Assembly: GCA_016176685.1 (NCBI GenBank)
Contig: JACOWS010000004.1
Span: 2,018-66,017 of the forward strand
Source: Patescibacteria group bacterium
Lineage (GTDB): Bacteria; Patescibacteriota; Minisyncoccia; Phycocordibacterales; SBAW01
DNA: 64,000 nucleotides
Direction: 5' to 3'
Shown in pieces: positions 3,012 through 64,000 of this stretch. How positions within the stretch are numbered: position 1 is the stretch's first letter; each line of letters begins with the position of its first letter. The translations under genes were made by a program, and so were the position numbers. Under the pieces are notes generated by a model. The model made no database searches. It was given only the letters and a program-made list of their open reading frames with translations, and was not told where the DNA came from.

Positions 3012-3314
3012 TTTTTCAGAACTTATAAAGCACGTTATCATTTCAATAGAATATTTTTAATTTAGCTATAGCTTAATTAAAAATATATTATTTTAAACTA
3101 AAGTAACGTGCGGAAATTAGAAAATCTGCTACAATTTCGTTGTTGTTAGCAATTGCCGGGTCGTCCCTGGCCGGTAAACCCGTCCACAAAAATGCGAGTG
3201 CCGTTTGTGTTAGTGTATAGCGAGATATTTTCAACTCGGGTAGAGGCGCGGAGGCGAGAGAAATATCTAAAGAGTTATAGAGGAGCGGGAGAAAAATCCT
3301 CTATATTGAAAAAT

Positions 3315-3385
3315 TGCCAGATCGTCTAATGGTAGGACTCCTGCCTCTGGAGCAGGGTATCTTGGTTCGAATCCAAGTCTGGCAG
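3315..3385 (+). tRNA. tRNA-Gln (anticodon CTG)
   Basis: Hand-folded cloverleaf. Acceptor TGCCAGA/TCTGGCA; anticodon stem CCTGC/GCAGG with loop CTCTGGA; T-arm CTTGG-TTCGAAT-CCAAG. No encoded CCA. Confidence 0.85.
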
Positions 3386-3477
3386 CAGTCTAGTTTAGTA
3401 TCGAAGGACCTAAAGCCGTCGATAACTAGATAACTTCACCCCGTTGTGGCATACCGGCTGAGCACCGTATTCAGAAC

Positions 3478-3507
3478 ACAAAACCACCGATTAGTCGGTG
3501 GTTTTGT
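3478..3507 (+). terminator. Perfect 13-bp inverted repeat hairpin (ACAAAACCACCGA-ttag-TCGGTGGTTTTGT) downstream of tRNA-Gln
   Basis: Seen directly. Followed by TGTGTAATTG rather than a long T-run. Candidate terminator, or a boundary element of the AT-rich island. Confidence 0.5.
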
Positions 3508-3589
3508 GTAATTGACCTCATTTAGTACTATATGATACGCTCTGTTGAACCAGTTGTTTTATTTGTAAGGGCGTGATATATATGCAAGT

Positions 3590-3823
3590 ATGCAAAAAGG
3601 AGATAATAAAAACGAATCATCAAGAGAAAGGTTTCGCCGCCTGGCTACCCTTAGGACGAATGGGGTTCTAAAGCGACTGAAGGTTCTGGGTAATTGTTCA
3701 AATCGCCACGCCTACGAATACGATGAGGAGGATATTGATAAGATTTTTTCCGAGATTGAGCGCAAGGTTAAGGAATCTAAAGCAAAATTTCATTTCCCCA
3801 AAAAGCGGGAGTTTAAACTATGA
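3590..3823 (+). CDS. Small basic hypothetical protein (77 aa), first ORF of AT-rich island 1
   Basis: ORF track only. AT-rich codon usage matches the neighbouring island genes. It ends 10 nt before the GHKL ATPase gene. No recognisable domain. Confidence 0.35.
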   Translation: MQKGDNKNESSRERFRRLATLRTNGVLKRLKVLGNCSNRHAYEYDEEDIDKIFSEIERKVKESKAKFHFPKKREFKL

Positions 3824-3832
3824 ACTAATCTT

Positions 3833-5626
3833 ATGTCTAACATACTCACGGATATTAAAACTGAACAAATAGGAGCCGACTTGTCGAAGGTCGTTGATAG
3901 AGTTTCAAAACAATATGACCGCCCGGATATTGCTTTTCAGAAAGAAGCAATCCAAAATTCTTGGGATGTTCGCAGTGATAAAAAGGAGGGGAAAGAGTGG
4001 CTATTTAAAATTTATGAATATAAGGACGGAAATCAGAAGACTCACGTCGTTGTAGAAGATTTTGGGACAAAGGGAATGAACAAAGAAAGGTGGGAGGCCT
4101 TTTCCTCACTATGGCGTCCTAAAAAAGATCGTGATGATGCTGGTGGAAAAGGACAAGGAAAGTTTGTATTGATGAACGCCTCCCAAGAACACGTTTTATT
4201 TGTGGAAAGTGTGAGTGATGATGCTGGTTATATTTGTAAATTTCTTCAGGATGGTAAAAAGAGTAGAGATGAAGAAAATTTCCAAATTTTTAAACATATT
4301 CCAAGCGTTAAACCCCTTGAGCACAAAGGAAGCAGAATTTGGGTATATGACGTTCGAGATGATTTTTTAAAAACACTACATTCCGAGGAATTTGCAGATT
4401 CAATAATAGAATGCTGGTGGCAAGTACTCGGACCCAGATTTAATGGAAAAATTTCTCTGTTTGATAAGGAGGTTGTGTATAAACCTCTTCCGTCCCCAAC
4501 GGAAGAAATAACCTTGTTTGAGAATCATCAGGTTGATGGGTTTGGCCGGATAAAAAGGCTTTGTCTCAGTTTTTATGCAGATAAAGTTCCGTCGGCTTTC
4601 GATGGAGTGATGGTTCAGCGAGCCAATATGATGATCGTTAAAATTCCCTTTGAAGTGCATGACAAAGAATATCAAGGTCGCTTTTCAGGATATATAGAAT
4701 TTGATGAAACGTTGGAAAAAGAGTTGAAGGAAATAGAAAGAAATGATCACTGTAGTTTTCAATATGAATCACCATGGAAAGAAATTAAGGTTCTTATAAA
4801 AGACGAGGTTAGTAAATTTATTACAAAGATCGTTCCATCGAAAGAACAACGCAAAACGATAAATATAAAAAATCTTGCCGAAGTTATTCAAAAAGCAAAC
4901 CAAATTATTGATGAATACTGTCCGGAAATTCTTGGTGGCGGAACAGTTGTGCCGCCGATTACTCCAAGGCCGAAGCCTCCAATCAGAATAAAACATCTTG
5001 CGGTCAATAAGAGAGAGGTGAAATGGGGCGATACAATCAAAGCGACTTGCGGGATACTTAACACTACCAGTGAGGATAAAAAGGTATCGCTTAATATTGA
5101 GATAAAAAGATTGGGAGCGAAAGTTCTTGAGGAAGAATATTCTCTAAAAATTAAAACTAGTGAATCTAAGCCGCTGAAATTAACCGAAATCAAGTTAGCC
5201 CAGAATAAATTTGATAAGGGGAAATATATTGTCCGTGCAATCTTGCGTGAACAGAGGCATGATCTTGATACTAAAACAACCAGTTTTTATCTTGAATCAA
5301 AAAGAGAGCCAGTTAAGAAAGGGTTTATCAAAGAAATTAGATTTTACGAATCTGATGAGCCGTTGAGAAATAAGCAGGTTAAAAGCGGAACTCTTGAAAT
5401 AAATTTAGGACACAAGGACTTTGCGAATATTTGGTCTGTTTTTGAAGAAAAACCAAATATTCAGACTAAACAGATTGGTTTCTTCATAATGAAACTTTGT
5501 CTCGACGAGGCAGTAAGAGAGCTGTTTAAATTGAAGTTAAAAGATGAGAGTTCGAAGGACATAGACGATATTGTTCAAGAAGTTAAAGAAATTCAAGATA
5601 GAATGTACTACGATGTCCATGCCTAA
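3833..5626 (+). CDS. GHKL/Bergerat-fold ATPase (MORC-like HATPase_c_3 family) with long C-terminal extension
   Basis: N-terminus carries Bergerat motifs: motif I EAIQNSWDV (ExxxNxxD), motif II VEDFGTKGM (DxGxG) and the G2 box GGKGQGKF (GxxGxG). 597 aa, about 37% GC, unlike the flanking genes. Confidence 0.75.
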   Translation: MSNILTDIKTEQIGADLSKVVDRVSKQYDRPDIAFQKEAIQNSWDVRSDKKEGKEWLFKIYEYKDGNQKTHVVVEDFGTKGMNKERWEAFSSLWRPKKDRDDAGGKGQGKFVLMNASQEHVLFVESVSDDAGYICKFLQDGKKSRDEENFQIFKHIPSVKPLEHKGSRIWVYDVRDDFLKTLHSEEFADSIIECWWQVLGPRFNGKISLFDKEVVYKPLPSPTEEITLFENHQVDGFGRIKRLCLSFYADKVPSAFDGVMVQRANMMIVKIPFEVHDKEYQGRFSGYIEFDETLEKELKEIERNDHCSFQYESPWKEIKVLIKDEVSKFITKIVPSKEQRKTINIKNLAEVIQKANQIIDEYCPEILGGGTVVPPITPRPKPPIRIKHLAVNKREVKWGDTIKATCGILNTTSEDKKVSLNIEIKRLGAKVLEEEYSLKIKTSESKPLKLTEIKLAQNKFDKGKYIVRAILREQRHDLDTKTTSFYLESKREPVKKGFIKEIRFYESDEPLRNKQVKSGTLEINLGHKDFANIWSVFEEKPNIQTKQIGFFIMKLCLDEAVRELFKLKLKDESSKDIDDIVQEVKEIQDRMYYDVHA

Positions 5627-6179
5627 AAAAGACAACTCAAAACCGGAGTCAAAGATTGGTTTGGGTGAAAAAACTGACTCCGGTTACAAATATTCGTCGC
5701 GAATAAATTTTAAGGAAGATTTATCACTTCAAATTGCAAAGTTAATGCAAGAAAAAAAAGCGAAAGATGAGCTAGAAACTTATGTTGAGCAAATTCGTAA
5801 AATTTCTTCGCGATTTAAAAATAAGGATAAAAACCTCGATTACTATACAGCTGTTGGCAAAGTTTTATTTTTTTTAAGCAGTGATAGCTTTAAGAACATA
5901 AAACCTTACAGCGTATTTAGAAGATTGATTGATGAAGTTCCCGATATATTGCCCGGATTAGACACGAAAAGAATACAAGATCATTTGATGATGATGTACA
6001 GAATTGGCGGGCTAGACGAAAATATTTTGAGTAAAGCGACATGGGAACAGTGGTATGAAATATCGAAGTTCAAAAATGCCATAAACAATCGGAGGGTGTT
6101 AAATAGAATACTTACGGCAAGCGGTAGTGCTTCTGGTCCTGATTTACGCAAAAAGATAGAATCTATACTAGGTAAGTAA
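5613..6179 (+). CDS. Hypothetical protein (189 aa), translationally coupled partner of the GHKL ATPase
   Basis: ATG at 5613 overlaps the upstream stop at 5624-5626 by 14 nt. Same AT-rich composition. No recognisable domain. Confidence 0.6.
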   Translation: MSMPKKDNSKPESKIGLGEKTDSGYKYSSRINFKEDLSLQIAKLMQEKKAKDELETYVEQIRKISSRFKNKDKNLDYYTAVGKVLFFLSSDSFKNIKPYSVFRRLIDEVPDILPGLDTKRIQDHLMMMYRIGGLDENILSKATWEQWYEISKFKNAINNRRVLNRILTASGSASGPDLRKKIESILGK

Positions 6180-6213
6180 AACTTGTCGCCGCAAATTTTC
6201 GTTTCTCAAGCGA

Positions 6214-13059: not shown

Positions 13060-15399
13060 CTAGTATCTGGCGGGGGCCGACTCGGCCGGTATCTCCACCA
13101 TGTCTATATCGCACACGCCACCCACGCACGCGAGCTCCTTTTTTTGCTCGGTCTCGTCGGTGCGCTCATAGGTGACGAGCTTGGAGTAGTCTATGTTCGG
13201 GAAGTTTGCAACCATTTCCTCGTACCGTTTTTTGTCTATCGACTCGTAGGGAGCCAGTTGGTACACATGGTCGAAGCGCGGCAAGAATGAGAGCCCGCCG
13301 ACAATGTCCCAGTTTTTCTGTATCCAGTCTACTACCCCTATCCACTCGTCCTCGCCGACAGAAATGGTGGCGGATGGGTTGTGCTCTGTGTAGTTGAGTT
13401 TTACCACCTTCCAATACTCCAGTTGCTCCATGGCCGACAAGTCTTCTTTGAAGGCCGAGCCGTTCGGCGCCTCCACGGGAAATTCCAAGACATACGTGTT
13501 TGCGCTTTCTTTCGACTGGCCGACCTCGGGGTAGTGCGGCACGCCCTGGTCTTTCATCATTTTAAAGAGCGAGTCGGTTGCCGAGATGCGCACCCGGCGT
13601 ATGTAGTACTTTGAGTGGCGCGGATGGATGCCGGATGAGCAGTTGAAGGTTTGCGACACTGTTCCGGAGGGCTTCACTGCCGTGACCGCCATAGACTGGC
13701 TGACGCCAAAACGCTTTGCGTAGGTGGCGTTGGCTTTTACCGCCGCATCGCGCATCGCGCGCAAGGCCTCCGGTGTCCGTGCTACGTCGCTGTCCCACTG
13801 CCCGGTCACCGACACGCCCAGCAGGCGCTCCGCCTCGCAGTGCTTTGTCCACTCTTTTGATATGTATTTGAACTTTGTCAGCGTTGACTGGTAGGTGCCA
13901 AGGAGCGCGGCAAGCCGCGCTTTGCGCACGAGCGACTCTTGCGTATCTCCCGCACGGGCTATCACTTCGGAAAGATTGCAAAATTGTTTTGATTGCAGGA
14001 TGATTTCGCCGCAGGGGTTTGTTCCTATAGAGCCTCTCACGACGCCCTCGGCATCTAACATGCCTATTTTTTTAAAGTAGGAGACCCGCCGCTTTGGAAC
14101 CGTGTGCGCCAATGCCCCCCGGTTGAAGATACCGCGCTCGCCCGAGCCGCTCTTCATCAGTGCTACCCACTCCTCCATTAGCTCGGTATTGGTTGGTTTT
14201 GTCTCATACACCGCCGAGTTGTTTGCAACGGAACGGTGAGGCTCGGTAAGGAAAAATTGCCCTTTTTTTGCATCGCGCGACTCGGTATCGTCAAGGTCCG
14301 AAAGCGAGATCATCGCGGTGCGCCGCACGCCCCCAGCCACCACACATTCGCCGATTTTGCAGATGATGTCGTGTGCATCAATGCTCCGCAGGCGCCGCCC
14401 TTGGCGGCGCAGTATCTTTTCGCGCGCAAAGTCAAGAAGCGAGCGCAAGGGCTCCGGGCCCGATGCTTTGCCGCCCATGGTCTTGAGCCTCGCACCCGCC
14501 GGACGGACGAGCGAGTAGTCAAACTCGACATCGCCGCCCGCGTACCACGTTTTAAGCCCCAGCGTGAGCGCGTCGCACCAACCCTCTTTAGAATCCGCAA
14601 CAGCATACGTCGGCAGCTTCTTTTTTGCTTTTTTCTGTTTTTGTATTTGCGGAAGTTTTTCTATATTTTGACTTTCAACCGAGAATCCGACTCCGCACCC
14701 CTGCATCGAGAGGTACATTATCTCTGCGAAGTCTGCCAATTTTGTGGGGGCGGTAAACGTACAGTTATATGCACAGGTATTGCATCGGCGTGCCGGCTCG
14801 CCGGCAAACTGCATCAGACGCATGGAGGGCATCACTTCTTGCCGTAAAATTGCTTCGCGCAGTTCGGCATACTCGTGCTCCGTAAGTTTGTCGCCGATGT
14901 TCTCCCTCATAAACGACATATATCGGTCGACCGTTTCTACCCAGGTTTCGCGCCGCCCCTCTGTTTCAATCCATCGGGCATAGGTGCGCAGAAACACAAA
15001 TTCGCCAAGCGGATTGTTTTTAAAGTATTGCTTGCTCTCGGCGGCCAGTGCGCGCACGTTTGCCGGCACGTCGCCCTGCTTTTTGCGCATACGCATGCGC
15101 TCGGCACGGTACAAAATATACGCTTTTGCGGTAGCGGGGAACTCTTGCAGCATCAGCTCCTTTTCAACCTCGTCTTGCACGCCCTCAACCGTGGCAGTGT
15201 ATATTTTATCGGCCGCCTTTTTTGCCGCTATTGTTTTTATAACCGCATCTGCAACTTTGTCGGGCGCCTTGTCGACAAACTCCCCGGCGGCCTTCATGGC
15301 CTTTTCCACCGCGGCGGCAATTTTGTGCTCGTCAAACTGCACCACCGTCCCGTCTCGTTTGGTAATAGTGGTAAGCGCGGGGAACTTCTTTTTAGGCAT
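13060..15399 (-). CDS. nrdJ: Adenosylcobalamin-dependent (class II) ribonucleotide reductase with N-terminal ATP-cone
   Basis: 779 aa. ATP-cone (KRDGTVVQFDEHKIAAAVEKA), NPCGEI catalytic Cys region, C-terminal CxxC motif (CVGGVC). 4-nt gap to pduO. Confidence 0.85.
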   Translation of the reverse strand: MPKKKFPALTTITKRDGTVVQFDEHKIAAAVEKAMKAAGEFVDKAPDKVADAVIKTIAAKKAADKIYTATVEGVQDEVEKELMLQEFPATAKAYILYRAERMRMRKKQGDVPANVRALAAESKQYFKNNPLGEFVFLRTYARWIETEGRRETWVETVDRYMSFMRENIGDKLTEHEYAELREAILRQEVMPSMRLMQFAGEPARRCNTCAYNCTFTAPTKLADFAEIMYLSMQGCGVGFSVESQNIEKLPQIQKQKKAKKKLPTYAVADSKEGWCDALTLGLKTWYAGGDVEFDYSLVRPAGARLKTMGGKASGPEPLRSLLDFAREKILRRQGRRLRSIDAHDIICKIGECVVAGGVRRTAMISLSDLDDTESRDAKKGQFFLTEPHRSVANNSAVYETKPTNTELMEEWVALMKSGSGERGIFNRGALAHTVPKRRVSYFKKIGMLDAEGVVRGSIGTNPCGEIILQSKQFCNLSEVIARAGDTQESLVRKARLAALLGTYQSTLTKFKYISKEWTKHCEAERLLGVSVTGQWDSDVARTPEALRAMRDAAVKANATYAKRFGVSQSMAVTAVKPSGTVSQTFNCSSGIHPRHSKYYIRRVRISATDSLFKMMKDQGVPHYPEVGQSKESANTYVLEFPVEAPNGSAFKEDLSAMEQLEYWKVVKLNYTEHNPSATISVGEDEWIGVVDWIQKNWDIVGGLSFLPRFDHVYQLAPYESIDKKRYEEMVANFPNIDYSKLVTYERTDETEQKKELACVGGVCDIDMVEIPAESAPARY

Positions 15400-15538
15400 G
15401 GGTAAGAGATATTATATTGGTAAGCATCTATCTATAGTACCTAGTTATACTTGTCTATGAATAAGAAAAAGTTGTGGATAAGGAACGCCAAAACAAAACC
15501 AGCTCAAGGTAAAGAGTAAAAACCTATAAACACCCCAT

Positions 15539-16045
15539 TTGGCCAGCAAAAAATATAGCCCTATACTATACGGTATGCACACGTTAATCGGACTCCATGC
15601 GGTGTTGGGCGAAGTCGGCGCACTGGCATTTCTATGGGTTTTTGTAGAGCTGTTAAACCCCAACGAGTCGCGGTTGCGAAGGGCCCAGATTATGGCCCTG
15701 CTCGGCGCCCTTTTTTTTGTCGGCGCCTGGTTTTTTGGCGGTTTTTATTACGTCACTGAATATGGCGCCGCAGTTAAACCAATTATCAAAAGCGGCCCGA
15801 TACCGTGGGCGCACTCGATAATTACAGAGACAAAAGAGCACGTCTTTCTCTTTCTCCCGTTTCTTGCCGTACTCACCTGGGGCCTGCTAAAGAGGTATAA
15901 GGATGAGTTTATACAAAAGAGAAATTTTAGGATAGCCGTTCTACTTATCTCCGGACTCGTCGTGCTTTTGGCATTTGCCATGGCGGGTATGGGGTTCCTT
16001 ATATCAAGCGGCTTTAGAGCGGCCTTAGAATCAAAAATCATATGA
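15539..16045 (+). CDS. Hypothetical membrane protein (168 aa)
   Basis: About five TM helices. No recognisable domain. Confidence 0.45.
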   Translation: MASKKYSPILYGMHTLIGLHAVLGEVGALAFLWVFVELLNPNESRLRRAQIMALLGALFFVGAWFFGGFYYVTEYGAAVKPIIKSGPIPWAHSIITETKEHVFLFLPFLAVLTWGLLKRYKDEFIQKRNFRIAVLLISGLVVLLAFAMAGMGFLISSGFRAALESKII

Positions 16046-16344
16046 AACTGAACAGCAAAGCACTCATTACCTCAACCATCGGTGTCATATGGCTCATAGT
16101 TGGCATGACACTTCTGGGCGAAGTGTCAGGACCGTTCAAATCGTTTTTGGTACAACTCGCCGGCCACCATTGGGTAGGAAAGAGCGGCATAGCCGTGGTT
16201 GTTTTTATCGCGCTGTATCTGGCTTTAGGTAAATCGAAAGAGTCGGAAGACATATTGCGCGGTGCACTGCTTGTCGCCTTGAGCATCATACTGGGCGGGT
16301 TAATCATATTTGTTTTCTTTCTCCAACACTTTTTGAGAGGATAG
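16042..16344 (+). CDS. Hypothetical membrane protein (100 aa)
   Basis: Three TM helices. 4-nt overlap with the upstream gene. Confidence 0.4.
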   Translation: MKLNSKALITSTIGVIWLIVGMTLLGEVSGPFKSFLVQLAGHHWVGKSGIAVVVFIALYLALGKSKESEDILRGALLVALSIILGGLIIFVFFLQHFLRG

Positions 16345-16362
16345 CTCGGAAGAAGATAGGGG

Positions 16363-17142
16363 GTGCGGATTGCTGTTCCGAGTTGCTCTGCTATAATGCC
16401 CAGTACTATGAACGAAACAATACCAAAGGCTACTAGTTTGACGGCGCCGGTTGCAATTGTTATCGCCGGGATATTGATCGCCGGTGCGGTGCTATACAGC
16501 AATAAAAGTCAATTTCTTTCTGCTGGTGCGGAAGAAAATGGGAAGGGCGTCGCGCAGACGGCTGGTTCAATCAGTTCTGTCCGACCGGTGAGTGACAGTG
16601 ACCACATCCGCGGCAACCCGAATGCGTTGGTCAAAATTGTGGAATACTCCGACTTTGAATGCCCTTTTTGTAAGCGATTTCACGATACTATGAACCAAAT
16701 AATGGATGAGTATGGAGAGAGCGGACAGGTTGCGTGGGTGTATCGGCACTTCCCGCTTGACCAACTGCATCCAAAAAATGCTCGTATCGAGGCGATTGCC
16801 TCCGAATGTGTCAACGAACTTGGAGGAAACGACGCGTTTTGGAAATTTGCAGACCGATTTTTTGAACGTACGCCTTCAAACGATCAAACCGATGTTACAA
16901 CGGTCTTACCGCAAATAGTTCGAGAACTTGGCATTAATGAACAAAGATTCAACACTTGTATGGATAGCGGTACGTATGACCAGCATATAGAATCTGATAT
17001 CGTAAACGCTGTCGAAACCGGCGGACAGGGCACGCCGTGGAGTATCGTTATCGCTGAAAACGGCAGGGCATTCCCGTTGTCGGGTGCTCAACCATACGCA
17101 TCGGTAAAGCAACTTATTGAGATAGCTCTTAAGGAGAAATAA
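16363..17142 (+). CDS. DsbA-like thiol:disulfide oxidoreductase (thioredoxin fold, membrane-anchored)
   Basis: CPFC active site in VEYSDFECPFCKRFH, with an N-terminal TM anchor. True start may be an internal Met (MNETIPK, about 16408). Confidence 0.75.
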   Translation: MRIAVPSCSAIMPSTMNETIPKATSLTAPVAIVIAGILIAGAVLYSNKSQFLSAGAEENGKGVAQTAGSISSVRPVSDSDHIRGNPNALVKIVEYSDFECPFCKRFHDTMNQIMDEYGESGQVAWVYRHFPLDQLHPKNARIEAIASECVNELGGNDAFWKFADRFFERTPSNDQTDVTTVLPQIVRELGINEQRFNTCMDSGTYDQHIESDIVNAVETGGQGTPWSIVIAENGRAFPLSGAQPYASVKQLIEIALKEK

Positions 17143-17158
17143 TTCTTTAAAACATTTT

Positions 17159-17689
17159 ATGATGCGAAAAGTAAAAAATTACGGCATAGTTCTGCTAGTT
17201 ATCGGCGGTATCAGCTATGGGGTATATTTATTCGCGCAAAGCGTCGCGCCAAAAGGAGAAGATATGAGTCAATCCATTCCGCTCTTGGAGGCCACTCATA
17301 TTGCAACAGACAGTCCTCTTGGGGAATATAATTCGAATCCGCCGACATCGGGACCGCACTACGGGCAAACGGCGCGGTCTGGTTTTCGCAGCGAGCCCGT
17401 TTCCGACCAAAACATCATCCATAACCTCGAGCATGGCGATGTTTGGATCGCCTACCATCCGCGTATTTCAGAAGCGATGAAGGAAGGCCTCAAACAATTT
17501 GCGGCCGCAAAAGTAATTATCACGCCGCGCGAAGAAAACGAAACTGACATTGCGCTTGTTGCGTGGGGCCGGTTGGACACCTTTACTATAGAGGGCGGTG
17601 TTCTTCCGGAACAGCGCATACAAGACTTCATCACGCGCTACAGTAATAAAGGGCCGGAGCGTGTTCCCGGCGCAAGTGGTGGTATATAG
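17159..17689 (+). CDS. DUF3105 domain protein
   Basis: N-terminal TM anchor. NPPTSGPHYG and LEHGDVWIAYHP are typical of DUF3105. Confidence 0.6.
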   Translation: MMRKVKNYGIVLLVIGGISYGVYLFAQSVAPKGEDMSQSIPLLEATHIATDSPLGEYNSNPPTSGPHYGQTARSGFRSEPVSDQNIIHNLEHGDVWIAYHPRISEAMKEGLKQFAAAKVIITPREENETDIALVAWGRLDTFTIEGGVLPEQRIQDFITRYSNKGPERVPGASGGI

Positions 17690-17704
17690 GCATGGTTTTT
17701 TGGT

Positions 17705-60561: not shown

Positions 60562-60652
60562 ACTGTTTACACGGAGTTTGTCGAAATGTGGTCACAAATA
60601 ACTTTTTGCCGTCACAAAAAGTTTTCGCGACCCCGGCTCGCGGCCGCACTAG

Positions 60653-60725
60653 TGCGCGGTGCAGGACTTGAACCTGCGACCCTCCCCACGTCAAGGGGAT
60701 GCTCTACCAACTGAGCTAACCGCGC
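60653..60725 (-). tRNA. tRNA-Val (anticodon GAC)
   Basis: Acceptor GCGCGGT/ACCGCGC; anticodon arm TCCCC-TTGACGT-GGGGA; T-arm GCAGG-TTCAAGT-CCTGC. Confidence 0.85.
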
Positions 60726-60800
60726 ATACGTCAAAAGACGGCTTTTACTATAGCCGTCTTTTACAGTCTTTTCAATTCCGCCGCCGTGCAACACGCTCGG

Positions 60801-61076
60801 TTACTCGTGATGCCTGTGCACGGTAAATAAGTCGGCAAATTTTATTTTAGCGATACCAAATAGATAGATAATCTCCAAAATTCCCAAGGTGTTTACCACC
60901 AAAAGAATCACAAACCACCACGGGTGGCCGCGCTGGCCCGCATGCCACAGTGCAAGCCCTTTCCAAAACAAGCTCCACAGCAAGACCGCAACAAACCCAA
61001 GCCCGGCAAGCGGTAGCATCCAGCCGCCTGCTCCAAACCCCATTGCGTATTCAAAACTATTAAATCCACTAGCCAT
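60801..61076 (-). CDS. Small hypothetical membrane protein (91 aa)
   Basis: Two TM helices. WHAGQRGHPWWFVILL motif. Confidence 0.4.
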   Translation of the reverse strand: MASGFNSFEYAMGFGAGGWMLPLAGLGFVAVLLWSLFWKGLALWHAGQRGHPWWFVILLVVNTLGILEIIYLFGIAKIKFADLFTVHRHHE

Positions 61077-61333
61077 AAAGCGTGATGTTTATGAGTATAT
61101 ATAAATTATACCACGTGGCGAGGACGATGCCCGGAACTTTGAACCAACTGCGGCCCACCGAAGCCTTGTGCGAAGGGGGCAAACGTGGCTCAAATTCAAG
61201 TATCTTGATAAAAGCATACGCGAATTGAGGGCTTATGTTCAAGTAACATCCGTAATGGTTTGAGGTGCCTAAGCCGAAATCTGACAAGGGGCAAAATGCT
61301 GTAGATTATCCCTTAGGAAATGACAATATCTAA

Positions 61334-62083
61334 CTATAAATTAGCTTTGATTTTATCACTAATACTATTGGTCTTCTCGATAATTTTATTTCTCATCTCC
61401 TCAGTGATCTGACCAATTTCTTTGTCTGTTTTTTCTGCGTTAGCGATAATTTCATCCAGTTTATCTAGAGTCGGATTTGTAAAATTAGTTCCACTCATAA
61501 TTAACTGTAAATTAATCTGATAATTTTTGATTACGTTTATATTATCTGTTGCCATAGCACTCAATTTGTTTAACATCTCATTCCACTTTTCACATTCATC
61601 TCTGAAATACGTATCCGCATAAGCCACAACTATCTGAAATCCATCGTCAATGTCTTTCTTTGATAGGGTATCGTTGAAATCCATGAACACTTGTTTTTTC
61701 TTTATTGCATCCTGATGGCTTTTTAGAGTTTTGACAATAATGTCACTTTTTTGCTTAATTGCGATCAATTTACTTATTATTGCTAAACCATTATTTCTTA
61801 CCGATTCCCAAACATTGATGTTATAGGTTAGCTTTCTATCTTTTGTGTTCTGCCAAATACTGACCATGAGAGTAATAACTGTTAAAAATCCGAGTACAAA
61901 GTTCGCGTCAATTTTTTGTTCAGAGAGGTAATCTCTAAATGATGGGTATGCTAAATATAGACCGAAAAATAAAACAACGATTGTTATCAATATTTGTATC
62001 GTTTTTCCTTTCAAGATAGTTTTTAGGTGTAATAGGTTACTCATAATCTTAATGCTTTTTGTCATGAGGCGGATTCGGGTCAT
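61334..62083 (-). CDS. Single-pass membrane protein with coiled-coil ectodomain (hypothetical), AT-rich island 2
   Basis: N-terminal TM (IQILITIVVLFFGLYLAY), a Lys/Asn/Ile-rich body, and about 33% GC. 35-nt overlap with the upstream DUF2188 gene. Confidence 0.5.
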   Translation of the reverse strand: MTRIRLMTKSIKIMSNLLHLKTILKGKTIQILITIVVLFFGLYLAYPSFRDYLSEQKIDANFVLGFLTVITLMVSIWQNTKDRKLTYNINVWESVRNNGLAIISKLIAIKQKSDIIVKTLKSHQDAIKKKQVFMDFNDTLSKKDIDDGFQIVVAYADTYFRDECEKWNEMLNKLSAMATDNINVIKNYQINLQLIMSGTNFTNPTLDKLDEIIANAEKTDKEIGQITEEMRNKIIEKTNSISDKIKANL

Positions 62084-62291
62084 GTCCTGGAGCTACGGTG
62101 TCACTGTCTCGGATAGGTCCTTTTGGAGTATGGATTCTTACTTCACCGCCACTGGTATTCGCAGAGAATCGTTTTGCCGCTTTTTCTGCTTCAGCTTGAG
62201 TATCATAATAACCAGCAGCTCGATCTGCTCCTTCTCGCTTTGCTTTCCAGTCGCCCGATTCTTTGTCTTTTGTAACGTGATAATTTGACAT
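62049..62291 (-). CDS. DUF2188 domain protein
   Basis: MSNYHVTKDKESGDWKAKREGADRAAGYYDTQAEAEKAAKRFSANTSGGEVRIHTPKGPIRDSDTV matches the DUF2188 pattern. Confidence 0.65.
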   Translation of the reverse strand: MSNYHVTKDKESGDWKAKREGADRAAGYYDTQAEAEKAAKRFSANTSGGEVRIHTPKGPIRDSDTVAPGHDPNPPHDKKH

Positions 62292-62347
62292 GGTTTTTGT
62301 GGATAACTTAACTTGTATACATTCTAATTATCATCTATACTATCAGC

Positions 62348-64000
62348 ATGCTCACAAAAAAGCAAGTGCAAGTGCTTGATTTCATCAAATCTTATAGATC
62401 AAAGCATGAGTATGCCCCCTCTCTTGAGGAAATAAGGCAAAAATTTAAACTAGCTTCTGCTTCCACATCTCACTATTACATCAGCAAACTCCAAGATGCT
62501 GGCTTTTTAAATAAGGAGCACAATCAACCCCGGGCTGTCTCCACAGTAGAAGCAAAGCAAATGATAGAGATTCCTATTCTTGGGGCAATTGCCGCTGGTC
62601 AACCCATTGAGGCCATAGAAATTTCCGATGAGACTATCACGATTGCAAAGGATGAAATTGGTAAGCAAGGAAAGCATTACGCTCTGCGTGTTCAAGGTAG
62701 CAGTATGATTGATGAGGGTATTTTTGATGGTGACATTGTTGTAATCCGCAAACAAGAGGTAGCAGAAAATGGTCAGACCGTTGTAGCAGTCATTGATGAT
62801 AACGAAGCAACACTCAAAAAGCTGTACCGTGAAAATGGGAAGTTCAGACTCCAGCCGGCAAATCCGACACTTTTCCCAATATATCGTGACGAAGTTGAAG
62901 TAAGAGGGGTAGTTGTAAAAATCATTCGCAATCTTGAATCGCAACTGGATCAAGGGCAATCAAGAGATGAAAAGTATGTCCGTAAAATAGATTATTCATG
63001 GGATTACAGAGGAGAAAAAACAAAATCATACACACATGGAATACATACCTATCCTGCAATGTTCATTCCGCAAGTTGGGCGAAGATTATTAGAAACTTAT
63101 AGTAAAGAGGGTGATACGATTTGTGATATCTTCTGTGGTTCCGGTTCAGCTTTAGTCGAAAGTAGATTGATTGGAAGAAATGCCTACGGCATTGATCTTA
63201 ATCCTTTGGCTATTTTTCTTGCGAAAGCAAAGACAACTCCGATCAATCCTCAAAAATTAACAAAGGAGTATATCGCTTTGTTAGATCGAGTAGAAAAAAT
63301 TAAAGATAACGAGATAAAAAGGCCAGATTTTAAGAATATTGATTTTTGGTTCAAAAATAAGGTAATAATTAAACTTGCAAAATTAAAGAAAACTATACGT
63401 GCAATAAAAGATGAGACGATTCAGAATTTCTTGATGGTCGCTTTTAGTGAGACAGTTCGCTATTCCTCAAACACAAAGACCGGTGAGTTTAAACTGGTTC
63501 GGGTTAAAGGCGACAAATTGGAAAAACATGATCCGGACGTCATTGGTATATTTCGCAAACACGCTGAAAAAAATATAGCTGGAATGACTGAATTCTACAA
63601 AGATGCCAAAAAGGATTCGTGGACAAAAATAATCTATGGGGATTCTTCAAAAGATAATGGGATTAAAGCCAATTCTATTGATTGCATTGTTACCTCACCC
63701 CCATACGGCGATAGTCGCACCACAGTAGCTTATGGACAGTTTTCACGCCTTTCTGCTCAATGGATTGATGTGTTTGAGGATCCAAATGACGCCTCAGGGG
63801 TAGATAACGACCTTCTTGGCGGTAGAGCTACTAAAAATTTAATTCATGCACTCTCATCTGCTTATCTCAAAGAATCCTTAGAAAAAATTGCTAAGCAAGA
63901 CGAGGCAAGGGCAAAAGATGTATTGAGCTTTAATCTCGGATTGAATGAGTGTTTGAAGCAGGCTCATAGAATCCTTAAACCAGGAAAGTATTTTTGCCTT
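62348..64000 (+). CDS. LexA-like repressor (wHTH + S24 self-cleaving peptidase) fused in frame to a DNA amino-methyltransferase domain (3' truncated by window edge)
   Basis: Not in the ORF track because there is no stop in the window. By hand translation from the ATG at 62348 the frame stays open for 551 aa. Residues 1-197 are LexA-like (HTH; AAGQP cleavage site at about 82-86; GSSM Ser119; EATLKKL Lys157). From about residue 214 it is MTase-like (DYSWDY...HTYPAMF...DIFCGSGS motif I at 262-267, GIDLNPLA, SPPY motif IV at 450-453, RILKPGKYF). Confidence 0.55.
   Translation, partial: MLTKKQVQVLDFIKSYRSKHEYAPSLEEIRQKFKLASASTSHYYISKLQDAGFLNKEHNQPRAVSTVEAKQMIEIPILGAIAAGQPIEAIEISDETITIAKDEIGKQGKHYALRVQGSSMIDEGIFDGDIVVIRKQEVAENGQTVVAVIDDNEATLKKLYRENGKFRLQPANPTLFPIYRDEVEVRGVVVKIIRNLESQLDQGQSRDEKYVRKIDYSWDYRGEKTKSYTHGIHTYPAMFIPQVGRRLLETYSKEGDTICDIFCGSGSALVESRLIGRNAYGIDLNPLAIFLAKAKTTPINPQKLTKEYIALLDRVEKIKDNEIKRPDFKNIDFWFKNKVIIKLAKLKKTIRAIKDETIQNFLMVAFSETVRYSSNTKTGEFKLVRVKGDKLEKHDPDVIGIFRKHAEKNIAGMTEFYKDAKKDSWTKIIYGDSSKDNGIKANSIDCIVTSPPYGDSRTTVAYGQFSRLSAQWIDVFEDPNDASGVDNDLLGGRATKNLIHALSSAYLKESLEKIAKQDEARAKDVLSFNLGLNECLKQAHRILKPGKYFCL

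Follow-up and report, generated by a model that had tools for sequence, protein, structure and literature searches.

What is a small three-gene cassette of low guanine-plus-cytosine (GC) content doing in the genome of a member of the Patescibacteria? The stretch of DNA analysed here (the window; 64,000 nucleotides of contig JACOWS010000004.1) carries at positions 3590-6179 three co-oriented open reading frames (ORFs) for proteins of 77, 597 and 188 amino acids (aa), and the two larger genes are annotated as 'hypothetical protein' in the NCBI record. They are referred to here as genes A, B and C:

3590-3823, + strand: gene A, 77-aa basic protein of an orphan family (ORF call)
3833-5626, + strand: gene B, 597-aa MORC-like (paraMORC-type) GHKL ATPase
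5613-6179, + strand: gene C, 188-aa basic, all-helical partner of an orphan family, with a 14-nt overlap with the gene B stop

A preliminary description, made from the sequence alone, had proposed this trio as a novel defence cassette in which a MORC-like ATPase is coupled to a partner of no recognisable family. The three ORFs are indeed genuine genes and not chance ORFs, as is evident from relatives in the databases and from conserved synteny. We read the cassette as a self-contained, mobile, DNA-directed conflict module of the paraMORC kind, that is, a restriction-like defence module, and we consider the case for this reading evenly balanced. The defence role rests on genomic context, and our confidence in it is moderate. 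To our knowledge, very few defence systems are known in Patescibacteria (candidate phyla radiation, CPR).

Gene B, a predicted GHKL ATPase with an S5-like domain

Altogether, 99 related loci were collected (numbered L001 onwards). Dereplication left 71 ATPase sequences, which fall into two subfamilies with an ATPase identity of only ~28% between them. The gene B family is conserved in length (~597 aa) and comprises 86 clusters in a database of 5.8 billion proteins; an attempt to widen it by a profile search gave the same 86 clusters. In metagenome contigs, 124 relatives of gene B were found.

Gene B has a Bergerat fold. The three boxes that had been quoted for it, EAIQNSWDV, DFGTKGM and GGKGQGKF, were found at residues 38-46, 76-82 and 104-111. 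Residue conservation was determined with 67 full-length relatives, 33 from subfamily 1 and 34 from subfamily 2. N42 of motif I (ExxxN; E38/N42) is invariant in all 67. Motif II (D76xG78xxG81), motif III, the ATP lid (G104..G107-Q108-G109-K110-F), and motif IV (G166-T/S167) are invariant or nearly so. Further invariant residues are Q262-R263, D291, E295, K299, E302 and H306, of which Q262-R263 and K299 are candidate gamma-phosphate sensors. Judged from these motifs, gene B encodes a GHKL+S5 ATPase with intact ATP-binding motifs, and ATP binding and hydrolysis are predicted. Residue 38 (window 3944-3946) is Glu in all 33 sequences of subfamily 1 and Asp in all 34 of subfamily 2, a clean clade-specific change of the presumed general base.

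The AlphaFold2 model of gene B (mean predicted local distance difference test, pLDDT, 83) has five parts:

3833-4432, + strand: residues 1-200, Bergerat-fold ATP-binding domain carrying motifs I-IV
4445-4762, + strand: residues ~205-310, β-rich S5-like transducer domain with invariant residues including ExxxH
4775-4933, + strand: residues 315-367, helical linker (AlphaFold2 model, pLDDT mostly 65-90)
4982-5404, + strand: residues 384-524, Ig-like β-sandwich
5414-5620, + strand: residues 528-596, C-terminal helical hairpin (model helices 528-536, 541-570 and 577-596)

The ATPase domain had been thought to end after about 170 residues, leaving roughly 430 residues without assignment. Neither figure can be kept: with the S5-like transducer the ATPase module reaches about residue 310, and the remainder can now be assigned to the linker, the Ig-like domain and the helical hairpin. 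The S5-fold domain that follows the GHKL domain has a conserved basic residue, and at its end, just past helix 292-300, lies an ExxxH motif (E302-x-x-x-H306) that is invariant in 67/67 sequences. Ig-like domains similar to the β-sandwich are found in glycosidases and in the DNA glycosylase AlkC. In the C-terminal hairpin E559 and D589 are conserved, and this part is possibly a dimerisation or partner-docking element. A His-Me-finger (ββα) nuclease site in the tail (N524/H527/D529/N532) was considered and is unlikely, since conservation of N524 and N532 does not extend to subfamily 2.

Single-sequence searches with genes A, B and C against Pfam, NCBIfam, PADLOC and PDB sequences gave nothing significant, and window gene B alone has no Pfam match at E<=1. 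Profiles of all three families against PDB sequences returned noise only (Cid1, haemagglutinin, methyltransferase type 12). Among 22 relatives of gene B, seven match Pfam HATPase_c_3 (PF13589; best E 9.7e-7). The nearest solved folds are those of MORC3, MORC2 and SMCHD1, ahead of Hsp90, Topo VI-B and MutL, with two figures for each comparison:

MORC3: 20.2, 276
MORC2: 19.7, 287
SMCHD1: 19.3, 286
TRAP1: 16.7, 285
Topo VI-B: 15.4, 321
MutL: 14.5, 258

About 280 residues align with the MORC modules, and the match therefore spans the GHKL domain and the S5-type transducer domain. Foldseek put Topo VI-B, Hsp90 and MORC2, all of the same superfamily, at the top for gene B.

Is gene B then a MORC protein? 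The family is defined by a GhXhhpXXRhl motif in the S5 domain (PMC2292703, Iyer, Abhiman & Aravind 2008). A regular-expression search found this motif absent in 66 of the 67 sequences, with the single match off-position, and in the homologous-looking stretch G258-V-M/R-V-Q-R-A-N-M-M-I the Arg is out of register. Gene B is therefore not a MORC sensu stricto. Of the earlier MORC/HATPase_c_3 assignment, the GHKL part and the nearest folds stand, HATPase_c_3 is reached by seven of 22 relatives but not by the window protein alone, and the MORC-specific S5 motif is missing.

The preliminary description had named identification as a housekeeping GHKL enzyme (MutL, GyrB, HtpG or a sensor kinase) as a result that would refute it. 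The rival explanation considered here is a divergent enzyme of this kind, a Topo VI B subunit included. The Bergerat fold is common to all of these, and Topo VI-B and Hsp90 are among the top whole-chain matches of Foldseek. However, MutL_C/DNA_mis_repair, Toprim, HSP90 and HisKA are absent from gene B and its relatives in Pfam scans, the cassette occurs in only 2 of 185,579 species-representative genomes, and in the window it sits in a low-GC island. Without diagnostic domains and with a sporadic, horizontally transferred distribution, gene B is not MutL, GyrB, HtpG or a sensor kinase, and this explanation is effectively refuted.

An obligate partner gene

The ATG of gene C at 5613, read from the sequence, gives a 14-nt overlap with the stop of gene B (TAA, 5624-5626). 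The overlap had been described correctly, but the length is 188 aa and not 189. Alternative starts are an in-frame ATG at 5619, which is the start in the NCBI record (186 aa), and a longer TTG-initiated reading from 5571. A homologue of gene C lies directly downstream of the ATPase on the same strand in all 63 loci with room for it (29/29 in subfamily 1, 34/34 in subfamily 2), and in subfamily 1 the two genes usually overlap. The coupling proposed in the preliminary description is thus borne out, and gene C is an obligate, translationally coupled partner of gene B.

The pairing may extend beyond the two subfamilies. In a third lineage (P0086/L099) the ATPase has 674 aa and 24% identity (hhalign probability 99.9), and the downstream gene (229 aa) keeps the partner motifs in order, although weakly (E 0.0016).

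The gene C protein is basic (pI 9.6) and all-helical. Its relatives form 54 clusters. An exhaustive hidden Markov model search with the gene C profile through 1.84 billion representative proteins returned only 33; these are fragments or stand-alone proteins of ~190 aa, with no known domain fused to any of them. In agreement with the preliminary description, the family is an orphan: no Pfam domain was found in gene C or among the 18 partners scanned. A toxin-like domain and a membrane segment are likewise absent from gene C. The fold is predicted confidently; the PDB offers no convincing match, only a weak structural resemblance to helical domains of ParB, KorB and protelomerase. The idea that gene C is a YhcG/DUF1016 N-terminal domain, prompted by a motif resemblance, was rejected by hhalign against E. 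coli YhcG (probability 0.07%, in a weak comparison with a single-sequence target).

Distribution and mobility

DNA similarity between the window and other loci is limited to ~3640-6160. By the conserved gene arrangement, the core unit consists of the ATPase and its partner, with gene A as a frequent accessory. In the window, the cassette lies within an island of different base composition:

3387-6190, no strand: low-GC acquired island, GC 0.34-0.40 inside, bounded by tRNA-Gln and GC-rich host DNA

The contrast is sharp, with a GC content of 0.37 for the trio against 0.55 in the left and 0.57 in the right flank. The cassette remains GC-poor in GC-richer hosts, and a contrast like that in the window is seen in L001 and in L004/L005. 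The flanks differ at every locus. The two species-representative genomes that carry the cassette are metagenome-assembled genomes, one of Saccharibacteria and one of Chloroflexi. The cassette is horizontally mobile among Patescibacteria, Chloroflexi and other uncultured lineages.

No match to the cassette was found in IMG/VR contigs, in 50,697 phage genomes (INPHARED), in 72,556 plasmids (PLSDB) or in PHROGs, and a phage or plasmid origin was rejected on these grounds. The cassette could also serve a small mobile element of its own, in partition, in replication control or as new transposition machinery, which would explain why it travels as a unit. It is found at unrelated chromosomal sites with sharp GC contrast, many of the contigs that carry it are only 2-5 kb long, and the faint likeness of gene C to ParB, KorB and protelomerase would suit such a function. 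However, short contigs are usual in these collections, no replication or integrase gene is linked to the cassette, and the viral, phage and plasmid searches speak against it as well. In blastn comparisons with 18 loci no conservation was found outside the coding region, and neither blastn nor repeat searches revealed terminal repeats, common ends or flanking repeats among the compared cassettes; conserved non-coding ends are thus lacking. We consider a mobile-element function highly improbable.

Genomic neighbours and the link to DNA methylation

If the cassette is a conflict module, its neighbours should be of interest. L012 is flanked by an N6/N4 methyltransferase, HNH, Mrr, Shedu SduA_C and NERD, L016 by ThsB_TIR, L040 by NYN, L004 by an HTH protein and Ymh, and L010 by IS1595, RhuM, PD-(D/E)XK and an antitoxin; L013 has a neighbour with a weak HEPN/AbiU2 match. 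The commonest Pfam families among the 149 nearest neighbours are DNA_methylase (6), HhH-GPD (5), N6_N4_Mtase (4) and ThsB_TIR (3), which makes methyltransferases the commonest family.

A link to methylation is seen in five subfamily-2 loci (among them L079, 6022-10438), where ATPase, partner, a C5 cytosine methyltransferase (PF00145, E 1e-55; PADLOC DrmMII/MTase_II) and an HhH-GPD glycosylase form an overlapping four-gene operon. L007 has an N6/N4 methyltransferase downstream, and at L099 a divergently oriented C5 methyltransferase and an HhH-GPD gene are nearby. Altogether, a methyltransferase is adjacent in 7 of the 71 loci, plus L099, and HhH-GPD takes the place of Vsr. All seven are found among the 36 loci without a detected gene A, compared with none among the 35 loci with gene A (one-sided hypergeometric p ~0.006). 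This exclusion is only suggestive, because five of the seven loci belong to one clade.

Of 49 loci, 14 have a further gene on the same strand, encoding 100 aa or more, with its start no more than 40 nt from the partner stop. What these genes encode differs (methyltransferase, Mrr, TIR, HEPN, NYN and others), and they could be swappable effectors or merely reflect compact defence islands. The window cassette has no fourth gene directly after the partner.

MutL assists Vsr in very-short-patch repair. By analogy, the ATPase and its partner might aid the C5 methyltransferase and a T:G mismatch glycosylase in methylation-associated DNA repair or epigenetic maintenance, with no attack on foreign DNA. 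The ATPase-partner-C5 methyltransferase-HhH-GPD operon of the five loci and the same neighbours at L099 would fit this explanation. Furthermore, GHKL+S5 modules work in mismatch repair, and some paraMORCs have possibly been recruited to repair (PMC2292703). We nevertheless regard a repair function as very unlikely.

The small basic protein upstream

The product of gene A is basic, as had been noted (77 aa, pI 9.9), and has no significant Pfam, NCBIfam, PADLOC, PHROG or PDB match. The gene is found upstream of the ATPase in 19 of 27 subfamily-1 loci (21 after correction of two artefacts in ORF-start calls) and in 17-18 of 36 subfamily-2 loci. Gene A is therefore a frequent but dispensable small basic protein, and a putative regulator or adaptor. 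It is conserved about equally between and within the subfamilies (profile scores ~100-137 bits in both cases), despite the ~28% identity of the ATPases.

The small size and tight coupling of the three genes, the first of them small and basic, call to mind selfish addiction or abortive infection. Gene C or a B-C complex would then be a toxin and gene A its antitoxin or repressor, and the cell would be killed or arrested upon infection or loss of the cassette, with foreign DNA not directly targeted. The mutual exclusion of gene A and methyltransferase (0/35 against 7/36) would fit alternative self-protection devices, and L010 lies beside toxin-antitoxin genes and IS elements. However, gene A is missing in a quarter to a half of the loci, most of which also lack a methyltransferase, and this dispensability weighs against an essential antitoxin. 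At L010 an IS1595 element replaces gene A while genes B and C are intact, and gene C has neither a toxin-like domain nor a membrane segment. We therefore take addiction to be quite unlikely.

Several observations on gene A and its upstream region deserve mention. At L010 the transposase of the IS1595 family (10-693, - strand) sits in the gene A position, followed by the intact ATPase (741-2537) and partner; this locus is a natural gene A knockout. The identity of gene A proteins to the window copy does not run parallel to that of the ATPase: in L012 the ATPase is 52% and the small protein 73% identical, in L004 the values are 70% and 41%. Subfamily-2 cassettes without gene A sometimes have another same-strand upstream gene of 145-376 aa (L007, 315-1241; L068, 1024-2124; L082, 5388-5825; also L062, 2574-3491, and L088, 3117-4247). 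Three of these proteins form a related group for which Pfam, PADLOC and PHROG gave no match, and DUF2130 is found in the L088 protein.

When operator palindromes were sought in the region before gene A, only the 8-bp TAGTACTA turned up in the window, and other loci do not share it. In both subfamilies a promoter-region element is found ~60-115 nt upstream of gene A (L023, L027, L050, L061, L067 and L069; partial in L022, L024, L029 and L095). It consists of TTATCCACA, the DnaA-box consensus, ~9 nt upstream of ATAAGGGTA-TTGACA; the spacer contains a second ATAAGG(G/A)T. The density of exact TTATCCACA in the upstream regions is 17-fold higher than in the remainder of the loci, and ATAAGGGT was counted in 7 of 58 upstream regions, where 0.23 would be expected. 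The element is absent from window 3387-3589, which retains only a GTAAGGGCG-TGATATATAT element at ~3567-3585.

Relation to paraMORC and to named defence systems

Which known system comes closest? The paraMORC1-5 families are GHKL+S5 proteins without the MORC motif, found in restriction-modification contexts together with genes for cytosine methylases and Vsr-type repair, and paraMORC2 is marked by an ExxxH that is strongly conserved towards the C-terminus of the S5 domain (PMC2292703). Gene B shares much with them: a GHKL domain with all ATP-binding motifs, an S5-like domain, no MORC motif, a sporadic and laterally mobile distribution in 'hotspots' and, at some loci although not in the window, association with a C5 DNA methylase and a T:G-repair gene. 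An ExxxH of the paraMORC2 type is also present (E302/H306), a likeness drawn from the described signature and not from sequence grouping. By its sequence features, the gene B family fits the paraMORC description and would belong in the radiation described in 2008.

There are differences as well. About 70% of prokaryotic MORCs are linked to a superfamily-II helicase and a nuclease, whereas no conserved helicase or nuclease was found in the 71 dereplicated loci. Unlike in paraMORC systems, a superfamily-II helicase and a restriction-fold nuclease are not linked, and two orphan partner families are found instead. Gene B has an extra Ig-like domain and helical tail, and the hosts are Patescibacteria and Chloroflexi, whereas those of paraMORC/paraMORC2 are cyanobacteria and Gram-positives. 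Identity to the eukaryotic MORC2, MORC3 and SMCHD1 is 11-14%; gene B lacks their CW, coiled-coil insertion and hinge domains and stands in a prokaryotic operon.

No named defence system of PADLOC-DB v2.0.0 accounts for the cassette, as the preliminary description had supposed: the three window proteins are unmatched there, and the best value among the 22 ATPase relatives is E 0.1. An experimentally validated system with a GHKL ATPase is Shedu type I-D/paraMORC3. VcSduA is a GHKL ATPase with anti-phage activity that is abolished by mutations in the ATPase motifs, and it is predicted to form an entwined dimer whose middle domain resembles a clamp (PMC12137116). It is a single protein with a C-terminal DUF4263 PD-(D/E)xK nuclease (PMC12137116). 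Gene B shares the GHKL ATPase, but it has no nuclease domain; there is no Shedu match in PADLOC or Pfam, and its C-terminal half is taken up by the Ig-like domain and helices. With the DUF4263 domain missing, identity with this system was rejected.

A second candidate is the HEF_HK/Response_reg_2 pair, in which a HATPase_c_3 (paraMORC-related) protein and one small partner are linked in 91.6% of cases; type II restriction-modification systems and C5 methylases are enriched around the pair (PMC8011034, Bellieny-Rabelo et al. 2021). The arrangement is similar, a HATPase_c_3-related ATPase tightly linked to one small gene. However, PF19191 and PF19192 gave no match in Pfam scans of 22 ATPases and 18 partners, and gene C is all-helical whereas the Response_reg_2 partner is receiver-like alpha/beta; this identity was rejected, too. 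Dallas and LdgA are Patescibacteria defences from a metagenomic selection, reported without homology to known proteins (PMC12366544). Going by that description, identity of either with a clear GHKL protein seems unlikely.

The claim of novelty has to be qualified accordingly. The gene B family, its partners and the nuclease-free composition appear to be undescribed, but the paraMORC kind of system is not new, having been predicted in 2008 (PMC2292703).

A proposed mechanism

The obligate pairing, the gene overlap, the mobility, the conflict-gene context and the methylation link were all counted in favour of a restriction-like module. In addition, the neighbourhoods agree with the contexts reported for MORC/paraMORC ATPases (PMC2292703). 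How could such a module work? By analogy with MORC, MutL and Topo VI-B, gene B would dimerise N-terminally on ATP binding and thus form an ATP-gated DNA clamp. The basic, helical gene C would recognise DNA, act as the effector or do both, unless the effector is the invariant D291/E295/K299/E302/H306 patch in gene B. Foreign DNA would be restricted or immobilised by genes B and C acting together. If the operon includes a C5 methyltransferase and a mismatch glycosylase, methylation would mark self; in the window version, gene A would take on a regulatory or self-protective role instead, as a controller protein or antitoxin-like factor. In this specific combination of clamp and partner, drawn by analogy, we have less confidence than in the defence role.

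Several points weigh against a restriction-like module. Profile and fold searches revealed no nuclease, helicase or other recognised effector in genes A, B and C, and the conserved polar patches match no known catalytic signature. Because none of the three proteins has a nuclease or known toxic domain, the effector step is the weakest point. The window cassette itself has no methyltransferase or nuclease. The association with defence genes is anecdotal, and since CPR genomes are compact, the tight spacing to defence genes may be incidental.

It is tempting to speculate that the ATPase-partner pair is a minimal restriction effector without a known nuclease fold, an idea that we consider unlikely taken over both its possible routes. 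Either gene C or the S5 patch would be a new DNA-cleaving or DNA-modifying site, or a MORC-like clamp would neutralise unmethylated foreign DNA by ATP-driven entrapment or compaction. In the latter case, cytosine methylation would be coupled to a prokaryotic equivalent of MORC/SMCHD1-type silencing. On this reading of the pair, gene A would stand in for the methyltransferase as another means of self-protection or control.

The cassette is found across phylum boundaries and, with 2.6 kb, is compact enough to be tested easily, which makes it a tractable candidate. With eukaryotic silencing ATPases as nearest folds and C5 methyltransferases in some operons, it may provide a simple model, in prokaryotes, of the way in which a MORC-type clamp reads or acts on methylated versus unmethylated DNA. 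As gene C has no convincing match in the PDB and no nuclease is recognisable, the effector step could reveal a new activity. Should the cassette turn out to be no more than a further paraMORC associated with restriction, defence-finder databases would still gain a new family entry.

Borders of the island and other features of the window

On its left the island is preceded by pyrG and a tRNA gene, and on its right GC-rich host genes follow:

3315-3386: tRNA-Gln(CTG), found with ARAGORN and Rfam; with pyrG the left neighbour of the island
3476-3509, + strand: perfect 15-bp inverted repeat with a 4-nt loop, 100% complementary (repeat search)

The hairpin at 3476-3509 is probably the terminator of the tRNA-Gln unit and would mark the left border of the cassette. 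It is followed by a -35-like TTGACC at 3513-3518. Integration at the tRNA site was considered and rejected: there is no integrase, the repeat search found no direct repeat of the tRNA-Gln 3' end at the cassette, and DNA conservation ends with the coding region.

Upstream of the tRNA, a 24-nt AT-rich palindrome (3045-3092; perfect register, 88% complementary, no spacer) lies ~35 nt past the pyrG stop (3011), where the low-GC stretch begins. A 58-aa ORF directly upstream of tRNA-Gln (3153-3329, + strand) has a 3' end that overlaps the tRNA gene. Its likeness to a GIY-YIG nuclease is confined to the C-terminal half of the latter (profile positions 43-73 of 78, Pfam E 0.0024), and it is probably a truncated remnant.

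Elsewhere in the window, a milder GC dip (0.47-0.49) at ~15400-17700 lies downstream of an ORF resembling a class II-type ribonucleotide reductase (13060-15399, - strand); by eye it contains small membrane proteins and a DsbA/thioredoxin-like ORF. A second low-GC stretch (~60800-64000; 0.39-0.44 against ~0.54) follows tRNA-Val (60652-60725, - strand) and has few long ORFs, among them one of 249 aa (61334-62083, - strand) that looks like a membrane or coiled-coil protein. This stretch runs off the end of the window and may be another acquired island.

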